From: Elusimicrobiota bacterium
GTDB taxonomy: Bacteria > Elusimicrobiota > Endomicrobiia > Endomicrobiales > Endomicrobiaceae
Reading direction: 5' to 3'
Assembly (NCBI GenBank): GCA_031256695.1
Contig: JAIRQB010000079.1
Coordinates: 1 to 29,706, forward strand
DNA: 29,706 bases
The notes under the pieces are model-generated. The model was given only the letters and a program-made list of their open reading frames with translations, searched no databases and had not been told where the DNA came from. The first letter of the stretch is position 1; the number at the start of each line of letters is the position of its first letter. A program made the position numbers and the translations under genes. Of the stretch, positions 6,333-29,706 are shown in pieces.

Positions 6333-9300
6333 CTATAAAAATCTCACAAAATGCGAAAAGTCTTGCTCCTTATATTTTCTCCTGCCTGTCATCTGTTCTC
6401 TTGCCACGCTCATCATAAGTTTTATTCTATTTATTTGATTTACTTCGCTGGCTCCCGGGTCATAATCTACTGCGGCTATATTTACATCGGCATAACGCCT
6501 CTTTAATTCTTTCATCACTCCCTTCCCCGTAATGTGATTAGGCAGACAGCCGAAGGGCTGAACGCACACTATATTGTTTGCGCCGCTCTCTATAAGTTCA
6601 AGCATTTCTGCAGTAAGAAGCCAGCCTTCTCCGCTTTGATTGCAAACCGAGACAATCTCTGAAACTTTTTCTGCGAGTTGTTTTGTCCTTTCAGACGATT
6701 CAAAATGGACGCTGTTTTTCAAAAACCTTCTAATCATTCCTCTGTGTATTTCTATGATTTTTATAATTGCGCTTGAAATAATTTTCATTTTAAGAGAGCC
6801 CGCAAGATACTTATGCTTGTAGTTGTCGTCTAAAAGGCAATAGATAAAAAAATCAGTCATATCAGGCACTATTGCTTCCGCTCCTTCCTTTTCTAAAACA
6901 GAGACGAGATTATTATTGGCGTCAGGGTGGAATTTCACCAAAATTTCGCCCACAACTCCCACGCGCGGCTTCTTTATATCCCTTATAGGAATTTCGTCAA
7001 ATTCTTTTATTATTTTTTTAATCGTCCTTTTAAATTCAAAATGCCCCGTTTTTCTAATTCTGTCTGATAAATGAATAAGCCATTTTTCAGTTAAATTTTC
7101 AGTCTGCCCCGTATTTATTTCATATGGTCTCATTCTATTTGAGAGCCGCATAAGAAGGTCGCCGTATAATAGGACGAGCATAACGTCTTTAATTAAACCC
7201 ATAGAAAACCCGAGACTATTGCTGGCAGACGAATTTGTAACCCCCAGCGAAATTATAGGGACATTTTTAAAACCCGCCTTTTCAGCCGCTTTCCTTAAAA
7301 AAGCGCCGTAATTTGTAGCGCGGCAGCCGCCGCCCGTTTGAGAGATAATTAAAGCGGTTTTATTTAAATCATATTTGCCTGATTTTAAAGCATTGATTAA
7401 CTGCCCCACTACCACTATAGTGGGATAGCAAGCGTCATTGTTGACATAGCGCAAACCTTCTTCAATATCCTTTTTGCCCACATTAGGCAAGACTTCTAAA
7501 TTGATTTTGTGTTTTCTCATTACAGCGCCTGCGAGTTTAAAATGCACGGGCGACATTTGAGGGCATAAAATCGTATAGGATTCTTTCATCTCTTTTGTAA
7601 ATTCTTTAAATTCAGAGCCTCTAAAAATTTCTTTTGAAGTCCGCAGCCCCTTCCTTTCCTTTATCGCCGCAAGCAAAGAGCGTATTCTTATCTTTACAGC
7701 GCCTAAATTAGCGCCTTCGTCTATTTTTAAAACTGTATAAATTTTGCCCGACTTTGAAAGGATTTCCTCTGTCTGCTCTGTAGTTATAGCGTCAAGCCCG
7801 CAGCCGAAAGAATTTAATTGAATAAGTTCAACGCTGTCTAAACTTGCCGCCAAAACAGCCGCTCTGTAAAGGCGCGAATGATACATCCATTGGTCAACAA
7901 AATTCAGCGGAGGCAAATGCCCCGCTAAATGAGCGACAGAATCTTCGCTCAAAACAATCATCTGATAAGAGGCTATTAAATCAGCAATGCCGTGGTTTAT
8001 AGCGGGGTCTATGTGATAAGGTCTGCCTGCAAGAATTACGGCAGGCTGCCCTGTTTTCCTTATCTCTTTTATAAGAGCGGCGCCTGTTTTGCGAATATCT
8101 TTTTTGAATAAATTTAAAGCCGCCCGCCCCTTTAAAACGGCAAAAGCGAGTTCTTTTTTTGTGAGTTTATACTCTTTTAATTCTTGATGCAGGCGGAAAA
8201 TCAATCTTTTGAGATTGTCAAAAGGCAAGAAAGGCTCAATGAACTTCACTCCTTGCGTCTCTAAAATATCCATATTTAGCCTAATTACTTCCGGGTATCC
8301 GCCTACGACGGGGCAATTATAATGATTGTCAGCATCTTTAAATTCTCTCACTTCAAAAGGAATACAAGGATAAAAAATGGTTTTAAGACCTTTTTTGACG
8401 AGATTTTCTATATGCCCGTGAACCATTTTCGCGGGGAAACACACAGTTTGCGAAGGTATGCTTTCAAGCCCGCTATTGAAGAGTTCATTTGAGGAAGGGT
8501 CTGACAAAACTACTCTAAAACCCAAAGAGGTAAAAAAGGCAAACCAGAAAGGATAATTTTCATACATATTTAAAGCGCGCGGCATTCCGATTTCTCCGCG
8601 TCGGGCTTTTTCTATAGGCAGAGGCTTATAATAATCAAAAAGCCTTTTGTATTTATAATCAAACATATTGAAGGCGAAATTGTTTATTTTTTTATCTTTC
8701 AAAGCGTTTTCACATCTATTGCCTGATATAAAGGTTTTACCCTCCGGAAATACCGCTATATTTAAAAGACATTTATTTTCACAGCCTTTGCAGCGCGTAT
8801 TTCTCATTTTGAAAGAAAAAGTTTCTAATTTTTCCCGCGATATTAAAGAAGTATTTCCTTTTGTATTTTGCAGCGCTATAAGACTTGCGCCGAAAGCCCC
8901 CATATATCCTGCTATATCAGGGCGCGAAATTTCAGCGTTTAAAAGGATTTCAGCCGCCCGCAAAACTCCATTATTAAAAAAAGTCCCGCCTTGGACTACG
9001 ATATTTTTCCCCAATTCCTCCGCTGTTGAAATTTTTATAACTTTATACAGAGCGTTTTTTATAACGGAATAATCAAGCCCAGCCGATATATCGGCGGCAG
9101 ACGCCCCCTCTTTTTGCGCTTGTTTGATTTTAGAATTCATAAAAACAGTGCAGCGCGAGCCTAAATCTACGGGAGTTTTAGATTTTAAAGCAAGAGTTGC
9201 GAAATCTCTCACATTGTAATTTAGGCTTTTGGCGAAATTTTCAATAAAAGAGCCGCAGCCTGAAGAACAGGCTTCATTTAAAATTATTTTGTCTATCAGC

Positions 9301-10631
9301 CCGTTTTTTACATAAATGCACTTCATATCTTGACCGCCTATGTCTAAAATGAAAGAGACATTTGGGTTAAAATAATGAGCGGCTTTATAATGGGCTATAG
9401 TTTCAACTTCGCCGAAATCAAAACCTAAAGCGGCTTTGATTAAAGACTCTCCATAGCCGGTGGCGCAAGCGCTTACAATTCGGGCTGTCAGCGGAATTTT
9501 TGAATAAATGTCTTTCAAAACATCAACTACAGACATCAATGGATTTCCATTATTTGCCCCATAATAGTCATAGACTATTTCTTTATTTTTTGTAATTAAA
9601 ACCGCCTTTGTAGTAGTTGACCCCGCATCTATGCCTAAAAACAAATCGCCTGAAAAATCTGAAAACTCAAGACGTTTTGCCGCGCTCTTGCCGTGCCTTT
9701 CTAAAAAAGCGGCATATTCTCCATCGTCTTTAAAAAGAGGCGGTAAAGAATCTGGATTTTGCAAAACGCCGCCTTTTTCTTTTAAATACTCAAATCTTTT
9801 ACGCAACTGTTTAAATGAAATTTCAACGGTATTTTTTAATTTAGCGCCTAAAAGAGCGGCGCCGAAAGCGACAAAGAAATGAGCATTGTTGGGGAAAAAG
9901 ATATTTTCTGCGGCAAGATTTAAAGATTTAATAAAACGCTCTCTCAATTCAGACAAGAAAAATAAAGGTCCCCCTAAAAAAGCGACATTGCCTTTTATAG
10001 AGCGTCCGCGCGCCAGCCCCCCTATAGTTTGATTTACCACAGCCTGCAAAATGCTTGCCGCTATATCTTCTCTTGCCGCTCCCTCATTTAAGAGGGGCAT
10101 AATGTCTGTTTTTGCGAAAACTCCGCAACGGGCGGCTATTGGATAAATTGTTTTGTGATTTTTAGCGAGTTCATTTATGCCTGCGGCATCTGTTTTTAGA
10201 GTTTGCGCCATCTGGTCTATAAAAGCGCCGGTCCCGCCCGCGCAAGTCTCATTCATTCTTTGGTCTATTGAAGCGCTGTCAAAAAATGTAATTTTGGCAT
10301 CCTCTCCGCCCAATTCTATAGCCGCATCAATTTTAGGCAAAAATGTCTTTATAGCCTCAGTGCAGGCAATTACTTCTTGCTCAAATTGAATGCCGCTTTT
10401 TTGAGACAGCGTTATAGCGCCTGAACCTGAAGCGCAAATTGTCATTTTCTCATCAATCAAGTCTTGCGGCGCTTCATCTATTAAACTGATTATTGTATTT
10501 AGAAGGTCTAATTGATGCCTTTTATAATTGCAATAGATTGTATTGTTGCCGCCGTCTAAAACGGCAAGTTTTATTGTAGTAGAGCCTATATCTAAACCCG
10601 CTTTTAAGTTATTTTTCATATTGTTTTCCAT
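6333..10631 (-). CDS. 2-hydroxyacyl-CoA dehydratase activator-like fusion: two BadF/BadG/BcrA/BcrD ATPase domains, DUF2229-type and dehydratase-type domains (~1432 aa)
   Basis: GLDIGSTT and GIDAGSTT ASKHA motifs, ELGGED and DIGGQD, CAGGTG/CGVF and CSSGCG/CTVF Fe-S cysteines, CFPAK, SFGCGLD, PFGCLPN. ATG 10631 has GAGGT upstream; the track start 10724 runs through a tandem repeat. Confidence 0.9.
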   Translation of the reverse strand: MENNMKNNLKAGLDIGSTTIKLAVLDGGNNTIYCNYKRHQLDLLNTIISLIDEAPQDLIDEKMTICASGSGAITLSQKSGIQFEQEVIACTEAIKTFLPKIDAAIELGGEDAKITFFDSASIDQRMNETCAGGTGAFIDQMAQTLKTDAAGINELAKNHKTIYPIAARCGVFAKTDIMPLLNEGAAREDIAASILQAVVNQTIGGLARGRSIKGNVAFLGGPLFFLSELRERFIKSLNLAAENIFFPNNAHFFVAFGAALLGAKLKNTVEISFKQLRKRFEYLKEKGGVLQNPDSLPPLFKDDGEYAAFLERHGKSAAKRLEFSDFSGDLFLGIDAGSTTTKAVLITKNKEIVYDYYGANNGNPLMSVVDVLKDIYSKIPLTARIVSACATGYGESLIKAALGFDFGEVETIAHYKAAHYFNPNVSFILDIGGQDMKCIYVKNGLIDKIILNEACSSGCGSFIENFAKSLNYNVRDFATLALKSKTPVDLGSRCTVFMNSKIKQAQKEGASAADISAGLDYSVIKNALYKVIKISTAEELGKNIVVQGGTFFNNGVLRAAEILLNAEISRPDIAGYMGAFGASLIALQNTKGNTSLISREKLETFSFKMRNTRCKGCENKCLLNIAVFPEGKTFISGNRCENALKDKKINNFAFNMFDYKYKRLFDYYKPLPIEKARRGEIGMPRALNMYENYPFWFAFFTSLGFRVVLSDPSSNELFNSGLESIPSQTVCFPAKMVHGHIENLVKKGLKTIFYPCIPFEVREFKDADNHYNCPVVGGYPEVIRLNMDILETQGVKFIEPFLPFDNLKRLIFRLHQELKEYKLTKKELAFAVLKGRAALNLFKKDIRKTGAALIKEIRKTGQPAVILAGRPYHIDPAINHGIADLIASYQMIVLSEDSVAHLAGHLPPLNFVDQWMYHSRLYRAAVLAASLDSVELIQLNSFGCGLDAITTEQTEEILSKSGKIYTVLKIDEGANLGAVKIRIRSLLAAIKERKGLRTSKEIFRGSEFKEFTKEMKESYTILCPQMSPVHFKLAGAVMRKHKINLEVLPNVGKKDIEEGLRYVNNDACYPTIVVVGQLINALKSGKYDLNKTALIISQTGGGCRATNYGAFLRKAAEKAGFKNVPIISLGVTNSSASNSLGFSMGLIKDVMLVLLYGDLLMRLSNRMRPYEINTGQTENLTEKWLIHLSDRIRKTGHFEFKRTIKKIIKEFDEIPIRDIKKPRVGVVGEILVKFHPDANNNLVSVLEKEGAEAIVPDMTDFFIYCLLDDNYKHKYLAGSLKMKIISSAIIKIIEIHRGMIRRFLKNSVHFESSERTKQLAEKVSEIVSVCNQSGEGWLLTAEMLELIESGANNIVCVQPFGCLPNHITGKGVMKELKRRYADVNIAAVDYDPGASEVNQINRIKLMMSVAREQMTGRRKYKEQDFSHFVRFL

Positions 10632-10663
10632 TTTATTTTTTACCTCACTGTCATTTGCAGCGC

Positions 10664-10717
10664 GCGCAAACACATAGCGCTGCGCAAACGCACAGCGCTG
10701 CGCAAACGCATAGCGCT
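10664..10717. repeat. 3 x 18-bp tandem repeat
   Basis: GCGCAAACACATAGCGCT / GCGCAAACGCACAGCGCT / GCGCAAACGCATAGCGCT. Confidence 0.92.
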
Positions 10718-10728
10718 GCCGCAATCCA

Positions 10729-10810: not shown

Positions 10811-10852
10811 TTGAGTTGCCTTGCTACTTGGGATTGCAACTCCGGAATGACA
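10811..10852 (-). repeat. REP-like palindrome with TGTCATTCCG head and GAGTTGC...GCAACTC hairpin
   Basis: Minus strand reads TGTCATTCCG GAGTTGCAATCCCAAGTAGCAAGGCAACTC AA; 17 nt are identical to 29690-29706. Confidence 0.8.
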
Positions 10853-10906
10853 GCACTGTAGGTTTGCGCCTTTTGCTGTTTTAATATGCCGTTTTCCTTA
10901 ACTCTT

Positions 10907-11053
10907 AAGAGTTATTTGGCGGCGTTTTTTGCCGACTTTATTTCTTGATGTCGGCTTGCTGACAAATTACTCAAGAGTTGTTTGGTGGCGCGGTAGCGCC
11001 GCCAAATTACTCAAGAGTTGTTTGGCAGCGTTTTACGCTGACAAATTACTCAA
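10907..11053 (+). repeat. Tandem array of three hairpin modules (GAGTTRTTTGG...CAAATTACTC) joined by AA
   Basis: Modules at 10909-10972 (64 nt, with a nested 25-bp hairpin), 10975-11012 (38 nt) and 11015-11051 (37 nt), each flanked by AA. Confidence 0.9.
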
Positions 11054-11060
11054 TTAACTT

Positions 11061-11973
11061 TTAATTCTCTATCCTGTCATAAACCAACACTTTTGCGCCG
11101 TAAATATCTTTTGTAAAAGACTGCTTATATTTATCAGATATGTATGTCTCTTTATCATTGGGGTCTATCAAAACATACAATCTTTTAAAAACGGCATTTT
11201 CTAAATCTTCTTGGGCTGCAAATAATACAGGAGTTTTTGCTCCCTTTTGCGAAACATAATAATTTGCAAATACTTTCAAGCCCGCTCCTCTTGTTTTATT
11301 TCTTTTGCTGTCCCAAATAGGCATTCTTATAAAAACAGCCGTTCCTTTATCATAAATATCTTTTTGCGCTATAAGATAATTAGCCCAGTCTTTATACGGT
11401 CCGTCGGGGATATAACGGCTGCGGTTATTTTCGTCAACTTTTATTAGAGTATTAAAGAAAAGAAAAAAGGCAAGGCAGACAATAATAATTGATTTTGCCG
11501 TCATATCTTTGCGGCATAAAAAATCAATGCATTTTATAGCGGAAAAAGCGCAAAGCAAATAAAAATAAGGCAATAATGTAAATAAATACCTATCAACCCA
11601 CAGAGACGCTTGATTTATTCCAAAAGATATTTTGCTGTATTCAAATAAGGCAAAAACAACAAAGACAATCGTCCATAAAATAATAGTTAAAAGACTAAAG
11701 CGCCAATTTATTCGTTTTTTAGACAGAATTTTTTTAAACAAAAACACAATCAGTATAGAGGCGGCAAAAAGGAAAAGAGACGGGTTCTCTCATTGACATC
11801 GTTGCTCTTGCCATATCCATAAAAGGAGCGCTGACCCAAAACAAAGAGCCTATTTCGTCAAACCAAAACCCTTTCATACCGGCATAATTAAGCATAATTG
11901 CAAACATCAAAAGCGATATGAAAAACATAATAATATGAGTCGGCGCGCAAAATTCTTTTGCTCTCTTAATCAT
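11061..11973 (-). pseudogene. Split, shortened GT-C (ArnT/PMT-like) membrane glycosyltransferase
   Basis: 5' piece (11973-11734) has a TM helix and GFWFDE. The 3' frame opens after TGA 11792-11790 and runs to 11061 with TM helices and DRY. Combined ~300 aa. Start overlaps the purB stop (ATGA). Confidence 0.62.
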
Positions 11974-13262
11974 TTTTTCAATTCCCTCCTGAATAAGAAA
12001 TCTATATTTTTGAATTGGCTTTTTAAATTGCAGTTTTCTTTTATTTCAGCCTCAGTTAAGTATTTTGAAATTTCGCTTTTTAGGCAACTCTCCTCTAAAG
12101 AGATTTGATTTTCTTTGGCATAAAAAGCCGCCGTCTGCATTAAGGCATATCCTTCTTCCCTTGAAAGCCCTTTGTCAACTAAAGATAAAAGCAGAGAGCC
12201 TGAGAAAACAACGTCTTTTGTCTTATCTAAATTGTTTTGCATATTTTGAGGATAAACTTTTAACCCGGAAAGCAAATACTGCATTCTAATCAGTATAAAA
12301 TGCGCCGCTATTGAGGCGTCAGGGAGGATAATTCTCTCCGTTGAAGAATGGCTTATATCCCTCTCATGCCAAAGCGCTATATTTTCCATAGCGGTTGCGG
12401 CATAGCCCCGCAAAAGCCTCGCTAAACCGCATATATTTTCAGAAATAATTGGATTTCTTTTATGAGGCATAGCAGAAGATCCCTTTTGCCCTTTTGTAAA
12501 AGGCTCTTCTGCTTCGCAAACCTCAGTCCTTTGCAGATGTCTGATTTCTGTTGCAATTCTCTCTAAACAAGCGCCTAAATGAGCGAGAGTAGAAATATAA
12601 AAAGAATGTCTGTCGCGGGGGATTATTTGAGTTGAAATAGGCTCTTGTTTTAATTTCATTTTTTGACAGACATATTTTTCTACAAAGGGGTCTAAATGCG
12701 CCATAGTCCCCACAGCGCCGCTTATTTTGCCGAAGGCAATATTATCTCTTGCAAATTCAAGTCTTTCTATAGTCCTTTTTATCTCGCTATGCCAAGACAA
12801 AACTTTCAGCCCGAAAGTTATAGGTTCTCCGTGGACGCCGTGCGTGCGCCCTATCATTGCCGTGTTTTTATATTTTTTAGCGAGGCTTTCTGTAATCAAA
12901 AGAAGTTTTTTTGTCTCTTTTATAAGGAGTTCAGCCGCTTCTTTAAGTTGAGCGCCCGTTGCCGTATCTAAAATATCTGAGGAAGTCATACCCAAATGCA
13001 AAAATCTGCCGTCTGAGCCGATGCTCTCAGAGACAGCCGTCAAAAAGGCTATTACATCGTGTTTTACCGTCATTTCTATTTCATTTATTCTATTTATATT
13101 GATTTTTGCTTTTGCCTTGATATTTTCCAGCGATTTTTTAGGGACAGCGCCGAGTTTAGACATAGCCTCTGCCGCAAAAATTTCAATCTCAAGCATTTTT
13201 TGAAATCTGTTTTCATCCGACCAAATTGCCGACATCTCAGGTTTTGCATATCTTGCTATCAT
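11970..13262 (-). CDS. purB: Adenylosuccinate lyase
   Basis: KHDVIAF, HLGMTSSD, GRTHGVHGEP, GSSAMPHKRNP, ERDISHSS. Confidence 0.98.
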   Translation of the reverse strand: MIARYAKPEMSAIWSDENRFQKMLEIEIFAAEAMSKLGAVPKKSLENIKAKAKININRINEIEMTVKHDVIAFLTAVSESIGSDGRFLHLGMTSSDILDTATGAQLKEAAELLIKETKKLLLITESLAKKYKNTAMIGRTHGVHGEPITFGLKVLSWHSEIKRTIERLEFARDNIAFGKISGAVGTMAHLDPFVEKYVCQKMKLKQEPISTQIIPRDRHSFYISTLAHLGACLERIATEIRHLQRTEVCEAEEPFTKGQKGSSAMPHKRNPIISENICGLARLLRGYAATAMENIALWHERDISHSSTERIILPDASIAAHFILIRMQYLLSGLKVYPQNMQNNLDKTKDVVFSGSLLLSLVDKGLSREEGYALMQTAAFYAKENQISLEESCLKSEISKYLTEAEIKENCNLKSQFKNIDFLFRRELKK

Positions 13263-24439: not shown

Positions 24440-24467
24440 ACTACCTCCTTTTTGATTGCAAGTCCTT

Positions 24468-24847
24468 CGCTCTTACCTTCAAAAATTTCGGGCGCCGCAT
24501 TTGCGGCTGAAATTTTTGAGATTAAGGAATCGGCAAAACTTCAACACGGCTTTCAGTTTTGCCTCTTTTTTATTTAAGACTGCTTACGCTTTTTGCCACA
24601 CTCACGCCCGCTCTTACCTTCAAAAATTTCTGGCGCCGCATTTGCGGCTGAAATTTTTGAGATTAAGGAATCGCAAAACCTTGCGGACAAGCCGCTGTCG
24701 GTTTTGCTCTTTTTTATTAAGCGTTATTTGCGGCGCATTGCCGACTTTACTTCTTGGTGTCGGCTGCCGACTTTACTTCTTGGTGTCGGCTGCGCCGACA
24801 AATTACGCAAGACTGCTTACGCTTTTTGCCACACTCACGCCCGCTCT
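24468..24847. repeat. Mosaic 141-bp-period tandem duplication with an inserted hairpin module
   Basis: A: 24468-24532 vs 24609-24673 (64/65 identical). B: 24576-24614 = 24809-24847 (39/39). Hairpin plus T tract at 24532-24575 and 24673-24718. Module 24721-24808 carries two 25-bp hairpins. Confidence 0.92.
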
Positions 24848-26509: not shown

Positions 26510-26783
26510 TATAATCCTTTTAAATTTTTTGGATTTTTTGACGTTTTTTCTGACGACGACGGCATAGTAATAAAAAACAGTTTTAGTGTCAAAAACTCCT
26601 CTTTAAAGTTAAAAGCGAAGTTGAGTTGTCTTGAATACTGTTTTGCAACTTCGCAAAAAGCAGAATTTTCTGCGCGAAGTTTTGCTTACGCGCGAAGCGC
26701 GCTTTAGTCTCATCGTATTCAACGGCAAAAGACGTTCCGCTGTTGGCATACTCGCAAAATGAAGCGACAGAAGCCGCTTCATT
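26510..26783 (+). other. AT-rich promoter (TATAAT 26510-26515) followed by a multi-hairpin leader
   Basis: Inverted repeats at 26615-26623/26646-26654, 26647-26654/26674-26681, 26660-26673, 26720-26745 and 26758-26783. Confidence 0.55.
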
Positions 26784-26813
26784 GTTGTAAATAAAAATAA
26801 AAAGGAGTTTAAG

Positions 26814-27383
26814 ATGAAAAGAGTTTTATTGATGTTTACTTTACTTGCGCTTTCTGTTTTTTTGGAGGGGTGCGGAAAAGATGATAAAACAATAAATTCA
26901 AATCCTACAACTGATGCGAGATTGACTGTTGAAGAAAGTCATAATGGAATTACAGCAAAATTAAAAATTGTTATATCTGGATTTCCGTCAGAGGCAGACC
27001 CGAATTATAATTGGAAGTATGCTGACGATGGAAGTGTTTTGACAAATAATCCATCTCTTGAATTGCTATACGGGGCAATCCTTATTGTAAATATAAACGG
27101 TCAAGAAACGGAATATGGACTTATGCATTTTGGCAATCAAGATGACCCAAACAGGCTTGCGGCTATTCCTTTAAGTAGACTTGAATCTGGATACTATGAC
27201 CCCATAGAAACAGAAATTAACGGTAATTGTATTATTACCGAGATAAACGCCGCTTATCTTTCTAATATCTTAACTGACGGCTCTCTTGCAGAAAAGACGA
27301 AAGAATACACGATAACCAAAATATTCGGCGTTACTTTTAATTTGAAGAAAGTCTTAAGGATTAAATACGTTGAAAGCATATAA
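26814..27383 (+). CDS. Hypothetical lipoprotein (189 aa)
   Basis: MKR, hydrophobic core, lipobox LEG-C, RBS AAGGAG; no recognised domain. Confidence 0.8.
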   Translation: MKRVLLMFTLLALSVFLEGCGKDDKTINSNPTTDARLTVEESHNGITAKLKIVISGFPSEADPNYNWKYADDGSVLTNNPSLELLYGAILIVNINGQETEYGLMHFGNQDDPNRLAAIPLSRLESGYYDPIETEINGNCIITEINAAYLSNILTDGSLAEKTKEYTITKIFGVTFNLKKVLRIKYVESI

Positions 27384-27417
27384 CTTACGGCGTTTATAAG
27401 ACGTTGGGGTAGCCGAC

Positions 27418-27455
27418 TTGAATTATTTGTCAATGCCGGCATTGCCAAATAACTC
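27418..27455 (-). repeat. Single reverse copy of the GAGTTATTTGG hairpin module
   Basis: Minus strand reads GAGTTATTTGGCAATGCCGGCATTGACAAATAATTC AA. Confidence 0.8.
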
Positions 27456-27502
27456 CAAAATTCTTAATTGCCGTTTAATTTTGTCAGATAAAAGGACTCC
27501 CG

Positions 27503-29557: not shown

Positions 29558-29706
29558 TTGAGTAATTCGGCGGCGCAAAACGCTGCCAAACGAAGTTATG
29601 CCGTCCCGTTGTCATACCCGCGCAAAATTTAGCGCCATTGGCGCTAAATTGCCGGCGGGAGTTGCCATCTGTAATTGGAGGCAACTCAAGAGTTGCAATC
29701 CCAAGT
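29558..29706. repeat. Composite REP-like cluster, truncated by the window end
   Basis: Reverse partial module 29560-29591; TGTCATACCCGC head at 29610; perfect 12-bp palindrome arms 29626-29650; GAGTTGCC...GGCAACTC 29659-29687; AA; next module from 29690. Confidence 0.85.

Follow-up and report, generated by a model that had tools for sequence, protein, structure and literature searches.

The stretch of DNA analysed here (29,706 nucleotides, i.e. 'the window') is contig C92, the longest of the 251 contigs in a fragmented metagenome assembly (1.52 Mb, 38% G+C, 83.6% complete) of an uncultured Endomicrobia bacterium from termite gut. The proteins nearest to its RecJ and adenylosuccinate lyase were Endomicrobium- or Endomicrobia-named, with 62-77% identity. 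An array of three complete hairpins (i.e. modules) in succession was observed on the + strand at positions 10909-11051, with AA at each joint. The left flank of this array (10889-10908, + strand) consists of a conserved block, CCGTTTTCC, one TTAACTC heptamer and then TTAA; the block stands ahead of heptamer tracts at ~50 sites in the genome, with or without hairpin modules behind it. The first module (10909-10972, + strand) is a long form of 64 nt, with an outer stem of GAGTTATTTGG and CAAATTACTC and one nested 25-nt hairpin in its loop (10931-10955); it folded as DNA with -11.5 kcal/mol (z -5.5) and was matched by a covariance model at 10905-10976. This is AA-joined to a short module of 38 nt (10975-11012, + strand; -14.7 kcal/mol, z -6.1), which is a row of the alignment from which that model was built, and then by a further AA to a short module of 37 nt (11015-11051, + strand; z -7.6), which matched the model with 65 bits and carries the non-pairs T.T, G.T and G.A at stem positions 5, 6 and 11. 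The right flank (11052-11072, + strand) reads AA and then TTAACTT TTAATTC, the heptamer tract being in phase again after subtraction of one TTAA. Single-stranded DNA folds of the three modules ranged from -11.5 to -14.7 kcal/mol (z -5.5 to -7.6), and the + strand of the array was 2.7-4.1 kcal/mol more stable as compared to the complement because the T.T and G.T non-pairs turn into A.A and A.C on the other strand.

Further copies are scattered over the window. A module of 88 nt at 24721-24808 (+ strand) belongs to a GCGT/ACGC subfamily and contains two tandem nested hairpins (24740-24764 and 24766-24790); its fold (-28.3 kcal/mol, z -8.4) extends the range of + strand z-scores for this copy and the three array modules to -5.5 to -8.4. 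This module and two 141-bp repeat units make up a 367-bp composite (24474-24840, + strand) that has CGCTCT at both edges and is missing in a 99%-identical strain. On the minus strand, a degenerate single module with a GAAT start (27420-27455; covariance model 42 bits) lies within a strain-specific segment (26597-27502), and the sequence at 29560-29591 is a module that has a truncated 3' arm and is joined to another repeat block; this module is whole in the other strain. Hairpins of a sister class, GAGTTGCC...GCAACTC, were assigned by a genome-wide pattern count and DNA folding at 10813-10842 and, as an AA-joined pair, at 29659-29706, where the first occupies 29659-29687 and the second, from 29690, runs past the contig end. 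Folds were weaker for the degenerate 27420 copy and two sister hairpins (z about -3.1 to -3.4). An earlier note, made from the letters of the window, had placed modules and sister hairpins at these positions, and all of its coordinates hold, including those of the degenerate and the truncated copy.

The unit of the family is an imperfect hairpin of 37-38 nt, GAGT...ACTC, followed by AA, with a 17-bp stem and arms of 16-17 nt that form terminal inverted repeats. Two-arm searches with a strict pattern gave 31 and 34 matches on the two genome strands (65 in all) and 0 for a reversed-pattern control. A looser census, in which one change was allowed per arm and a stem was required, found ~80 GAGT...ACTC modules, which are spread over 39 contigs and form 57 arrays, of which 38 are single, 16 double and 3 triple; this census is incomplete and missed some modules, e.g. 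24721-24808. Fifty modules are short (36-39 nt) and 30 are long, the latter with one nested unit in 25 cases, two in 3 and three in 2. The sister class, GAGTTGC(C/A)...GCAACTC, has ~71 copies in the genome as compared to 0 for its control, and also exhibits AA after ACTC. The covariance model, derived from an alignment of 45 short modules (A1), gave 109 strand hits in the home genome.

In that alignment, 91.6% of stem cells were paired as compared to 83.8% in column shuffles, a level reached by 0 of 500 shuffles, and both-sided changes were present in 10 of the 17 stem pairs. Position 2 divides the modules into subfamilies, namely GAGT/ACTC, GCGT/ACGC (9/80) and GTGT/ACAC (one copy); other compensated pairs include G-C or A-T at position 10 and several alternatives at positions 12-15. 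Non-pairs are kept as T.T at position 5 in 56/80 modules and as G.A at position 11 in 30/80, with G.T at position 6 in 24/80. Compensating changes maintain the stem but leave two fixed positions unpaired, and the unit is therefore a directed imperfect palindrome.

Similar elements were sought outside this genome. The exact arm pattern had no match among 40 relatives up to class level, 88 further species from 14 genera of the same family were without a hit to the covariance model, and blastn against plasmid and phage records gave no module match. No Rfam family was matched at gathering score, with just sub-threshold microRNA noise at E up to 1. A loose two-arm pattern run against 596 Gb of genome contigs is over-degenerate and produced, among the matches listed, lone chance ones in unrelated taxa, and a 22-nt array junction searched against metagenome contigs had a single marine match that lacked a surrounding hairpin and was read as chance. 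Nothing similar is described in the Endomicrobia genome paper or in the REP surveys consulted, and no earlier account of such repeats in Elusimicrobiota was found. The hairpin family is real, abundant and restricted to one Endomicrobia lineage. This bears out the earlier note, by which few copies outside the window would have spoken against the family, in its observations of a kept T.T mismatch and a GAGT/ACTC to GCGT/ACGC double change and in its inference of a lineage-specific, modular repeat. The modularity is seen in the occurrence of a short and a long form, in the number of nested units (1-3 per module), in arrays that hold 1-3 modules and in subfamilies whose stems are compensated. No Rfam match, REP tag or parent IS with the same ends was found that would place the repeat in a catalogued family. 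The flanking AA on which the earlier note had remarked is also a genome-wide bias, being present after 68/80 modules and before 53/80 as compared to a genome AA frequency of 0.13.

Arrays comprise 1-3 modules, and all 19 multi-unit arrays are direct, i.e. head to tail with an AA linker. Within arrays, the 5' arm is almost always GAGTTG and the 3' arm AAATTACTC, so that the junction ACTC-AA-GAGTTG is itself a conserved word. The tetranucleotide preceding a module is TTAA in 29 cases, TCAA in 18 (i.e. the end of the previous unit) and TTGA in 6. Tracts of the heptamer TTAACT(T/C) number 139 in the genome as compared to 44 in the control, and most have no module nearby. Many arrays interrupt such tracts in the form ...TTAACTC TTAA [units] AA TTAA CTT TTAACT..., with the phase of the tract restored once the units and one TTAA are removed; TTAA flanks both sides of 9 arrays. 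The right junction, ACTCAATTAACT, occurs 24 times in the genome and regular tracts 72 times, while the site predicted in the absence of a TTAA repeat, ACTYTTAATTAACT, has 0 genome occurrences. A filled/empty pair is present in the window itself, where a copy of the 141-bp unit around 24570 has no module and reads TTATTTAAGACTG, while the neighbouring copy holds the 24721-24808 module as TTATTAA[module]AAGACTG at 24713. This pair fits either a repeat of AA or insertion just 3' of TTAA by a unit ending in AA. The flanks lean towards a short target duplication without settling it, and the inner junctions of arrays, which are AA alone, are not explained by a simple TTAA target duplication.

The 25-nt hairpin nested in the loops, GCCGAC-N13-GTCGGC, occurs in 72 copies in the genome (with up to 3 mismatches) and in 0 copies in 400 other Elusimicrobiota genomes. 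Catalogued modules account for 36 of the 72, an undercount because the census missed some modules. Relative to the outer stem, nested units are found in both orientations. Many of those remaining occupy the loop of an unrelated hairpin, TCAAAAATTTC...GAAATTTTTGA, of the 141-bp repeat unit, where 1-4 tandem nested units are found with a 26-nt period; GAGT modules hold 1-3. Occurrence in the loops of two unrelated hairpins points to an element that is independent and prefers hairpin loops.

The positions of the modules relative to genes were biased. Seventy of 80 modules lie outside ORFs of at least 110 aa. Among 33 modules with genes on both sides, the gene contexts were ++ for 15, -- for 13, +- for 5 and -+ for 0, i.e. 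28 co-directional, 5 convergent and none divergent, as compared to 11% divergent among background spacers (p 0.045). The end of the upstream gene lay at a median of 87 nt from the module. In 21 of 23 oriented cases between co-directional genes, the more stable strand (i.e. that with T.T and G.T) was antisense to these genes (p 6.6e-5). Heptamer tracts were considered as the source of this strand bias and rejected, since tracts free of modules show no strong bias. Adjoining genes include housekeeping genes (e.g. recJ and feoB), and stacked units have no ORFs between them.

Repeats have also entered genes. A 623-aa ORF on contig C244 matches the two halves of a heptosyltransferase (GT9) with residues 4-198 and 477-598, whereas in six relatives and in the genome's own paralogue the halves lie ~14 codons apart in ORFs of 347-393 aa. 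The intervening ~270 aa are encoded by an in-frame mosaic of two hairpin modules (C244:905-1006), heptamers and other repeat classes. This 795-nt insert contains 0 stop codons in the frame of the gene, while the two remaining sense frames have 13 and 24. A piece of the same mosaic is fused in frame, at gene ends, to a GT2 gene (C38) and a GT92-like gene (C86), with a module content of 102 nt and 39 nt, respectively, both multiples of three. The sense strand of most intergenic copies is closed by a TAA in the loop, and in-gene copies are therefore the stop-free subset, as expected if only those survive. Translation was rejected as a general role of the modules for the same reason, as just the stop-free variants occur within ORFs. 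At least three glycosyltransferase genes have been broken up or extended by repeats, which fits repeat-driven gene decay.

Signs of movement were examined within the genome and between strains. Identical units were found at separate loci, with six occurrences of one 39-nt unit, four of one 38-nt unit and two of each of several others. Logan contigs were examined for four runs from two studies; the run that matches the window best is a termite gut metagenome, and three runs of a separate study labelled 'symbiont metagenome' (i.e. X2, X3 and X4), which stem from symbiont preparations of single host cells, carry the 99%-identical strain. The repeats were found in Logan contigs of all four runs, and the summed word depth over repeat bins was ~40-100x that of unique sequence in the two best-covered runs. 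Short Logan contigs over arrays are a mixture of junctions from many loci and were assigned to no single place. The other strain, known partly from an independently assembled 17-kb contig, differs at every repeat cluster of the window with a resolvable counterpart; its contigs end at 10724 and, opposite, inside a membrane-protein gene, such that the 10.9-kb array lies outside the comparison.

Three differences were resolved. The 367-bp composite is replaced in runs X2, X3 and X4 by an empty joint from 24452 to 24841, and could be either an insertion with a 6-nt duplication or the product of a deletion, in the strain lacking it, between 6-nt repeats (CGCTCT). At 29591 the other strain has a whole module and a second module where the window has a truncated module fused to a repeat block, a difference best read as a deletion in the window strain. 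Where the window has segment 26597-27502, the other strain has about 150-168 nt, which is best read as an accessory-gene indel. The comparison of spacers between strains proposed in the earlier note has thus shown that clusters differ, but the resolved clusters gave no clean gain or loss of a single module, the differences resembling deletions or microhomology indels instead. Its claim of mobility is supported indirectly, by identical dispersed copies, filled/empty pairs, differences between strains and the in-gene mosaic.

Candidates for a mobilising enzyme were sought with protein family models. Y1_Tnp (PF01797; i.e. RAYT/IS200), OrfB_IS605 (PF01385; i.e. TnpB), DDE_Tnp_1 and DDE_3 (PF01609 and PF13358; IS4/5 and IS630 types), IS110 (two models) and PDDEXK_2 had no match in the 83.6%-complete assembly, while control genomes were matched in every one of these searches; these negatives hold for an assembly that breaks at repeats and do not imply absence from the organism. 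An IS481-like (rve) transposase on contig C214, ~130 nt upstream of a module, was rejected as the mover since it is a single copy with no inverted repeats matching the modules. Genes enclosed by arrays (i.e. feoB and those for a TonB-dependent receptor, a heptosyltransferase, a DNA methylase and parA) are ordinary and none is a transposase. No RAYT/IS200-like or DDE transposase bordered by modules, for which the earlier note had suggested looking, was therefore present in the assembly, and no parent IS sharing the module ends was found there. A 95-aa stand-alone GIY-YIG gene (C132:34-321, minus strand) has a repeat mosaic of a different class on both sides; homologues of its family occur, often in multiple copies, in 17 of 30 relatives, all without these hairpins, and both observations led to its rejection as a specific partner. 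The other GIY-YIG match above the family cut-off was the N-terminus of UvrC, and a third match, on contig C251, was sub-threshold and corresponded to no named family.

Several known systems share features with the modules. REP/BIME elements and MITEs are non-autonomous palindromes moved in trans, and REPs are linked to HUH Y1 (RAYT) nucleases that read imperfect hairpins. The REP/BIME/REPIN elements of Proteobacteria are GTAG- or CGTC-tagged palindromes associated with RAYT (PMC3733652, PMC2817692, PMC3116915), an unpaired GTAG or CGTC end tag being the mark of most REPs (PMC3733652). Like REPs, the modules are short (20-40 nt) imperfect palindromes with copy numbers in the tens to hundreds, are mostly extragenic and lineage-specific, cluster in mosaics with other repeats and lie after genes and outside divergent spacers, with some copies in genes. 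Unlike REPs, their ends GAGT and ACTC pair mutually with no unpaired GTAG or CGTC, their flanks are T(T/C)AA and AA, no RAYT gene was found in the assembly, TTAA borders the arrays left and right in heptamer tracts and the loops hold a second hairpin; modules are also stacked directly, head to tail with a 2-nt linker, as compared to the alternating orientation of REP/BIME/REPIN elements. The family is not a member of the tagged REP superfamily, as tests for the tag, a RAYT gene and alternating dimers were each negative. For elements derived from IS200/IS605, the left flank T(T/C)AA fits insertion 3' of a tetranucleotide without duplication, but TTAA at the right flank is at odds with it.

MITEs moved by DDE transposases include the Correia/CREE elements of Neisseria and RUP of Streptococcus pneumoniae. 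The modules resemble them in having terminal inverted repeats and short flanking direct repeats (AA or TTAA), in being non-coding and in lying near or in genes, but are far smaller (37 nt), form one hairpin over the whole unit and have inner junctions of AA only. DDE-type MITE status was not shown, since no parent IS was found in the assembly and the duplication is ambiguous. BOX elements of S. pneumoniae have the structure boxA-boxB(n)-boxC and are likewise modular, with two pairing outer parts and a variable number of inner units; in contrast, the modules described here are much smaller, their inner unit also occurs in unrelated hairpins and their sequence appears unrelated. Rickettsia palindromic elements (RPE) are reportedly palindromic repeats that occur in a host-restricted bacterium and may be located in frame in protein-coding genes. 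In-frame presence within genes is shared with RPE, but consists here of one clear case (GT9, C244) and two gene-end fusions, most copies being intergenic with stops on the sense strand. In Nostocaceae, small dispersed repeats (SDR) are said to be very small and to nest in other repeats, in which they would resemble the nested unit described here. Integron attC sites are imperfect hairpins that follow each cassette ORF in one array adjoining intI, whereas the modules are spread over 39 contigs beside housekeeping genes and are stacked without intervening ORFs.

The modules are probably non-autonomous REP/MITE-like palindromic repeats that have been mobilised in trans and have multiplied in one Endomicrobia lineage, the moving enzyme not having been found. 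They behave like REPs and MITEs in being small, directed, abundant, post-genic, mosaic-clustered, strain-unstable and gene-entering. A trans-acting nuclease or transposase would recognise either the imperfect hairpin or the terminal GAGTT/AACTC heptamer-like ends and, as the flank statistics suggest, would insert new units beside TTAA or TCAA. The unit end ACTCAA recreates a TCAA site, by which arrays may grow head to tail. Such an enzyme might be encoded in the unassembled 16% of the genome or belong to a family outside those searched, and clusters would be reshaped after insertion by deletion and by recombination between repeats. As a counterpoint, hairpins can also spread or persist through recombination and selection for host function.

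A specific form of that counterpoint is that the modules are structural elements selected by the host (e.g. mRNA 3'-end stabilisers, attenuators or protein-binding sites) and spread by duplication, recombination and gene conversion. Their location downstream of genes in co-directional and convergent spacers, their strong orientation bias and the compensating changes that preserve the stem would all be expected of such elements, but the hairpin on the sense strand is the weaker one (A.A and A.C; 2.7-4.1 kcal/mol less stable) and no T run follows it. As the family is missing from every relative searched, there is no conserved function at orthologous sites; copies are also found inside genes and in pseudogene contexts, and copy number varies between near-identical strains, which together make selection by the host an improbable explanation. 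Movement of classical REPs or REPINs by a RAYT (HUH Y1) acting on single-stranded hairpins, with the RAYT gene absent from the incomplete assembly, appears still less probable. Imperfect directed hairpins with fixed unpaired positions, the strand bias relative to genes (21/23) and the placement downstream of genes and never in divergent spacers are as this explanation predicts; an enzyme reading the left flank T(T/C)AA could build arrays on the unit end TCAA, and the assembly is just 83.6% complete and broken at repeats. It is opposed by the lack of a Y1_Tnp match in that assembly and of an unpaired GTAG/CGTC tag, by direct instead of alternating stacking and by the occurrence of TTAA on both sides in tracts with the unrepeated site absent, whereas HUH enzymes make no target duplication. 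A link to RAYT/HUH enzymes, at which the earlier note had hinted, consequently gained no support.

It is very unlikely that loop-seeking and end-seeking mini-hairpins form two tiers moved by an enzyme class not yet tied to repeats with the 95-aa GIY-YIG protein of C132 as one candidate. The 25-nt unit does lie, as 1-4 tandem copies, in the loops of two host hairpins that are unrelated to each other, and the GIY-YIG gene stands alone between repeat mosaics and belongs to a family with a patchy distribution and multiple copies among relatives, a pattern shared with selfish genes. Its flanks, however, are of a different repeat class and not GAGT modules, and the gene is present in 17/30 relatives as compared to none for the hairpin family. 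That the family is an artefact of assembly or binning is scarcely conceivable: the metagenome assembly is fragmented (251 contigs) and repeats lie at contig ends, but the same modules and junctions were present in contigs of four runs from two studies and likewise in the independently assembled 17-kb contig of the 99%-identical strain.

To our knowledge, small palindromic repeats are common and movement is understood for few families. The present family is without both defining marks of RAYT-associated REPs (i.e. the end tag and the enzyme) and yet exhibits signs of recent spread, and any mechanism is constrained by direct stacking with a 2-nt linker, TTAA flanking arrays in heptamer tracts and a loop-seeking second hairpin. 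More tentatively, the modules and the 25-nt loop unit may represent two tiers of an undescribed kind of small-DNA movement, in which folded hairpins would be copied or pasted beside hairpin ends, giving arrays, and into loops, giving nesting. Its enzyme would fall outside both the RAYTs and the classical DDE transposases, and the process would be tolerant enough for in-frame insertions of several hundred bases into genes, with signs of erosion in host genes; we regard this reading as possible but doubtful.

The repeats also bear on the assembly. Some ORF calls extend into repeat DNA and are unreliable in those stretches. Next to the array, the ORF at 11061-11747 is the end portion of a longer gene, in which the window strain has a deletion. 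Within 150 nt of contig ends, 15/80 modules were found as compared to 4 expected (p 8e-6). This excess indicates that the assembly breaks at repeats, which explains its 251-piece state, and that the true number of modules is higher.

The mosaic of hairpin modules, tandem heptamers and other repeat classes was found to extend into glycosyltransferase genes of assembly GCA_031256695.1. A GT9 heptosyltransferase gene (contig C244:75-1946; locus L163) contains ~270 aa of repeat mosaic between its two domains. This insert is in frame and stop-free, while the GT9 orthologues are uninterrupted in six relatives, as is the strain's own paralogue on contig C19. Both a GT2 gene (C38:1345-2565; L002:767-1987) and a GT92-like gene (C86:4824-5528; L164:1325-2029), the latter with a truncated GT92-like domain, read in frame into mosaic shared with the C244 gene. 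The ORFs of these two genes exhibit a peptide motif, ...KMQ(G/S)xLSNLLAL...NNS..., encoded by the hairpin modules.

In the window, the 1463-aa BcrAD/BadFG-type activase ORF (6333-10724) has a listed TTG start that lies within a dispersed repeat, GCGCAAACGCATAGCGCTGCCGCAATCC... (10640-10724), and the real start is probably further downstream. The ORF at 11061-11747 is the 3' remainder of a longer membrane-protein gene (11061-11990, minus strand), which starts directly after the adenylosuccinate lyase gene. Comparison with the 99%-identical strain places a deletion within this gene, near 11766, in the window strain. Two further segments differ between these strains. The other strain lacks the entire block at 24468-24847, which contains two tandem copies of a 141-bp repeat unit, each bounded by CGCTCT; fragments of this unit occur ~5-15 times across the genome. 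The second, at 26597-27502, is strain-specific and contains a degenerate module and a 189-aa ORF (26814-27383) with a hydrophobic N-terminus, for which a family search returned no match; its counterpart in the other strain is 150-168 nt long.

Tandem heptamers, (TTAACT[T/C])n, were present genome-wide as 139 runs of 2-6 units as compared to 44 for a control pattern. Pieces of such tracts are located at 10899-10908 and 11054-11072 of the window. The majority of the tracts in the genome have no adjoining hairpin, and a conserved ~60-nt block ending ...GTTTCTAAACTGCCGTTTTCC is often found 5' of them.

Several other genes lie within or between repeats. An IS481-like gene (rve, rve_3; C214:2979-3971; L120:967-1959), present in single copy and the sole transposase found in this 83.6% complete assembly, is surrounded by repeat mosaic downstream of alaS. 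Two hairpin arrays that point in the same direction enclose a DNA methylase, an unassigned 379-aa ORF and a ParA-like ATPase (C201:1745-5581; L124). A stand-alone GIY-YIG nuclease gene of 95 aa (C132:34-321, minus strand; L173) has repeats of the GTCATTGCGGC...GCCGCAATCC class on either side, and its homologues in relatives are patchy and multi-copy.
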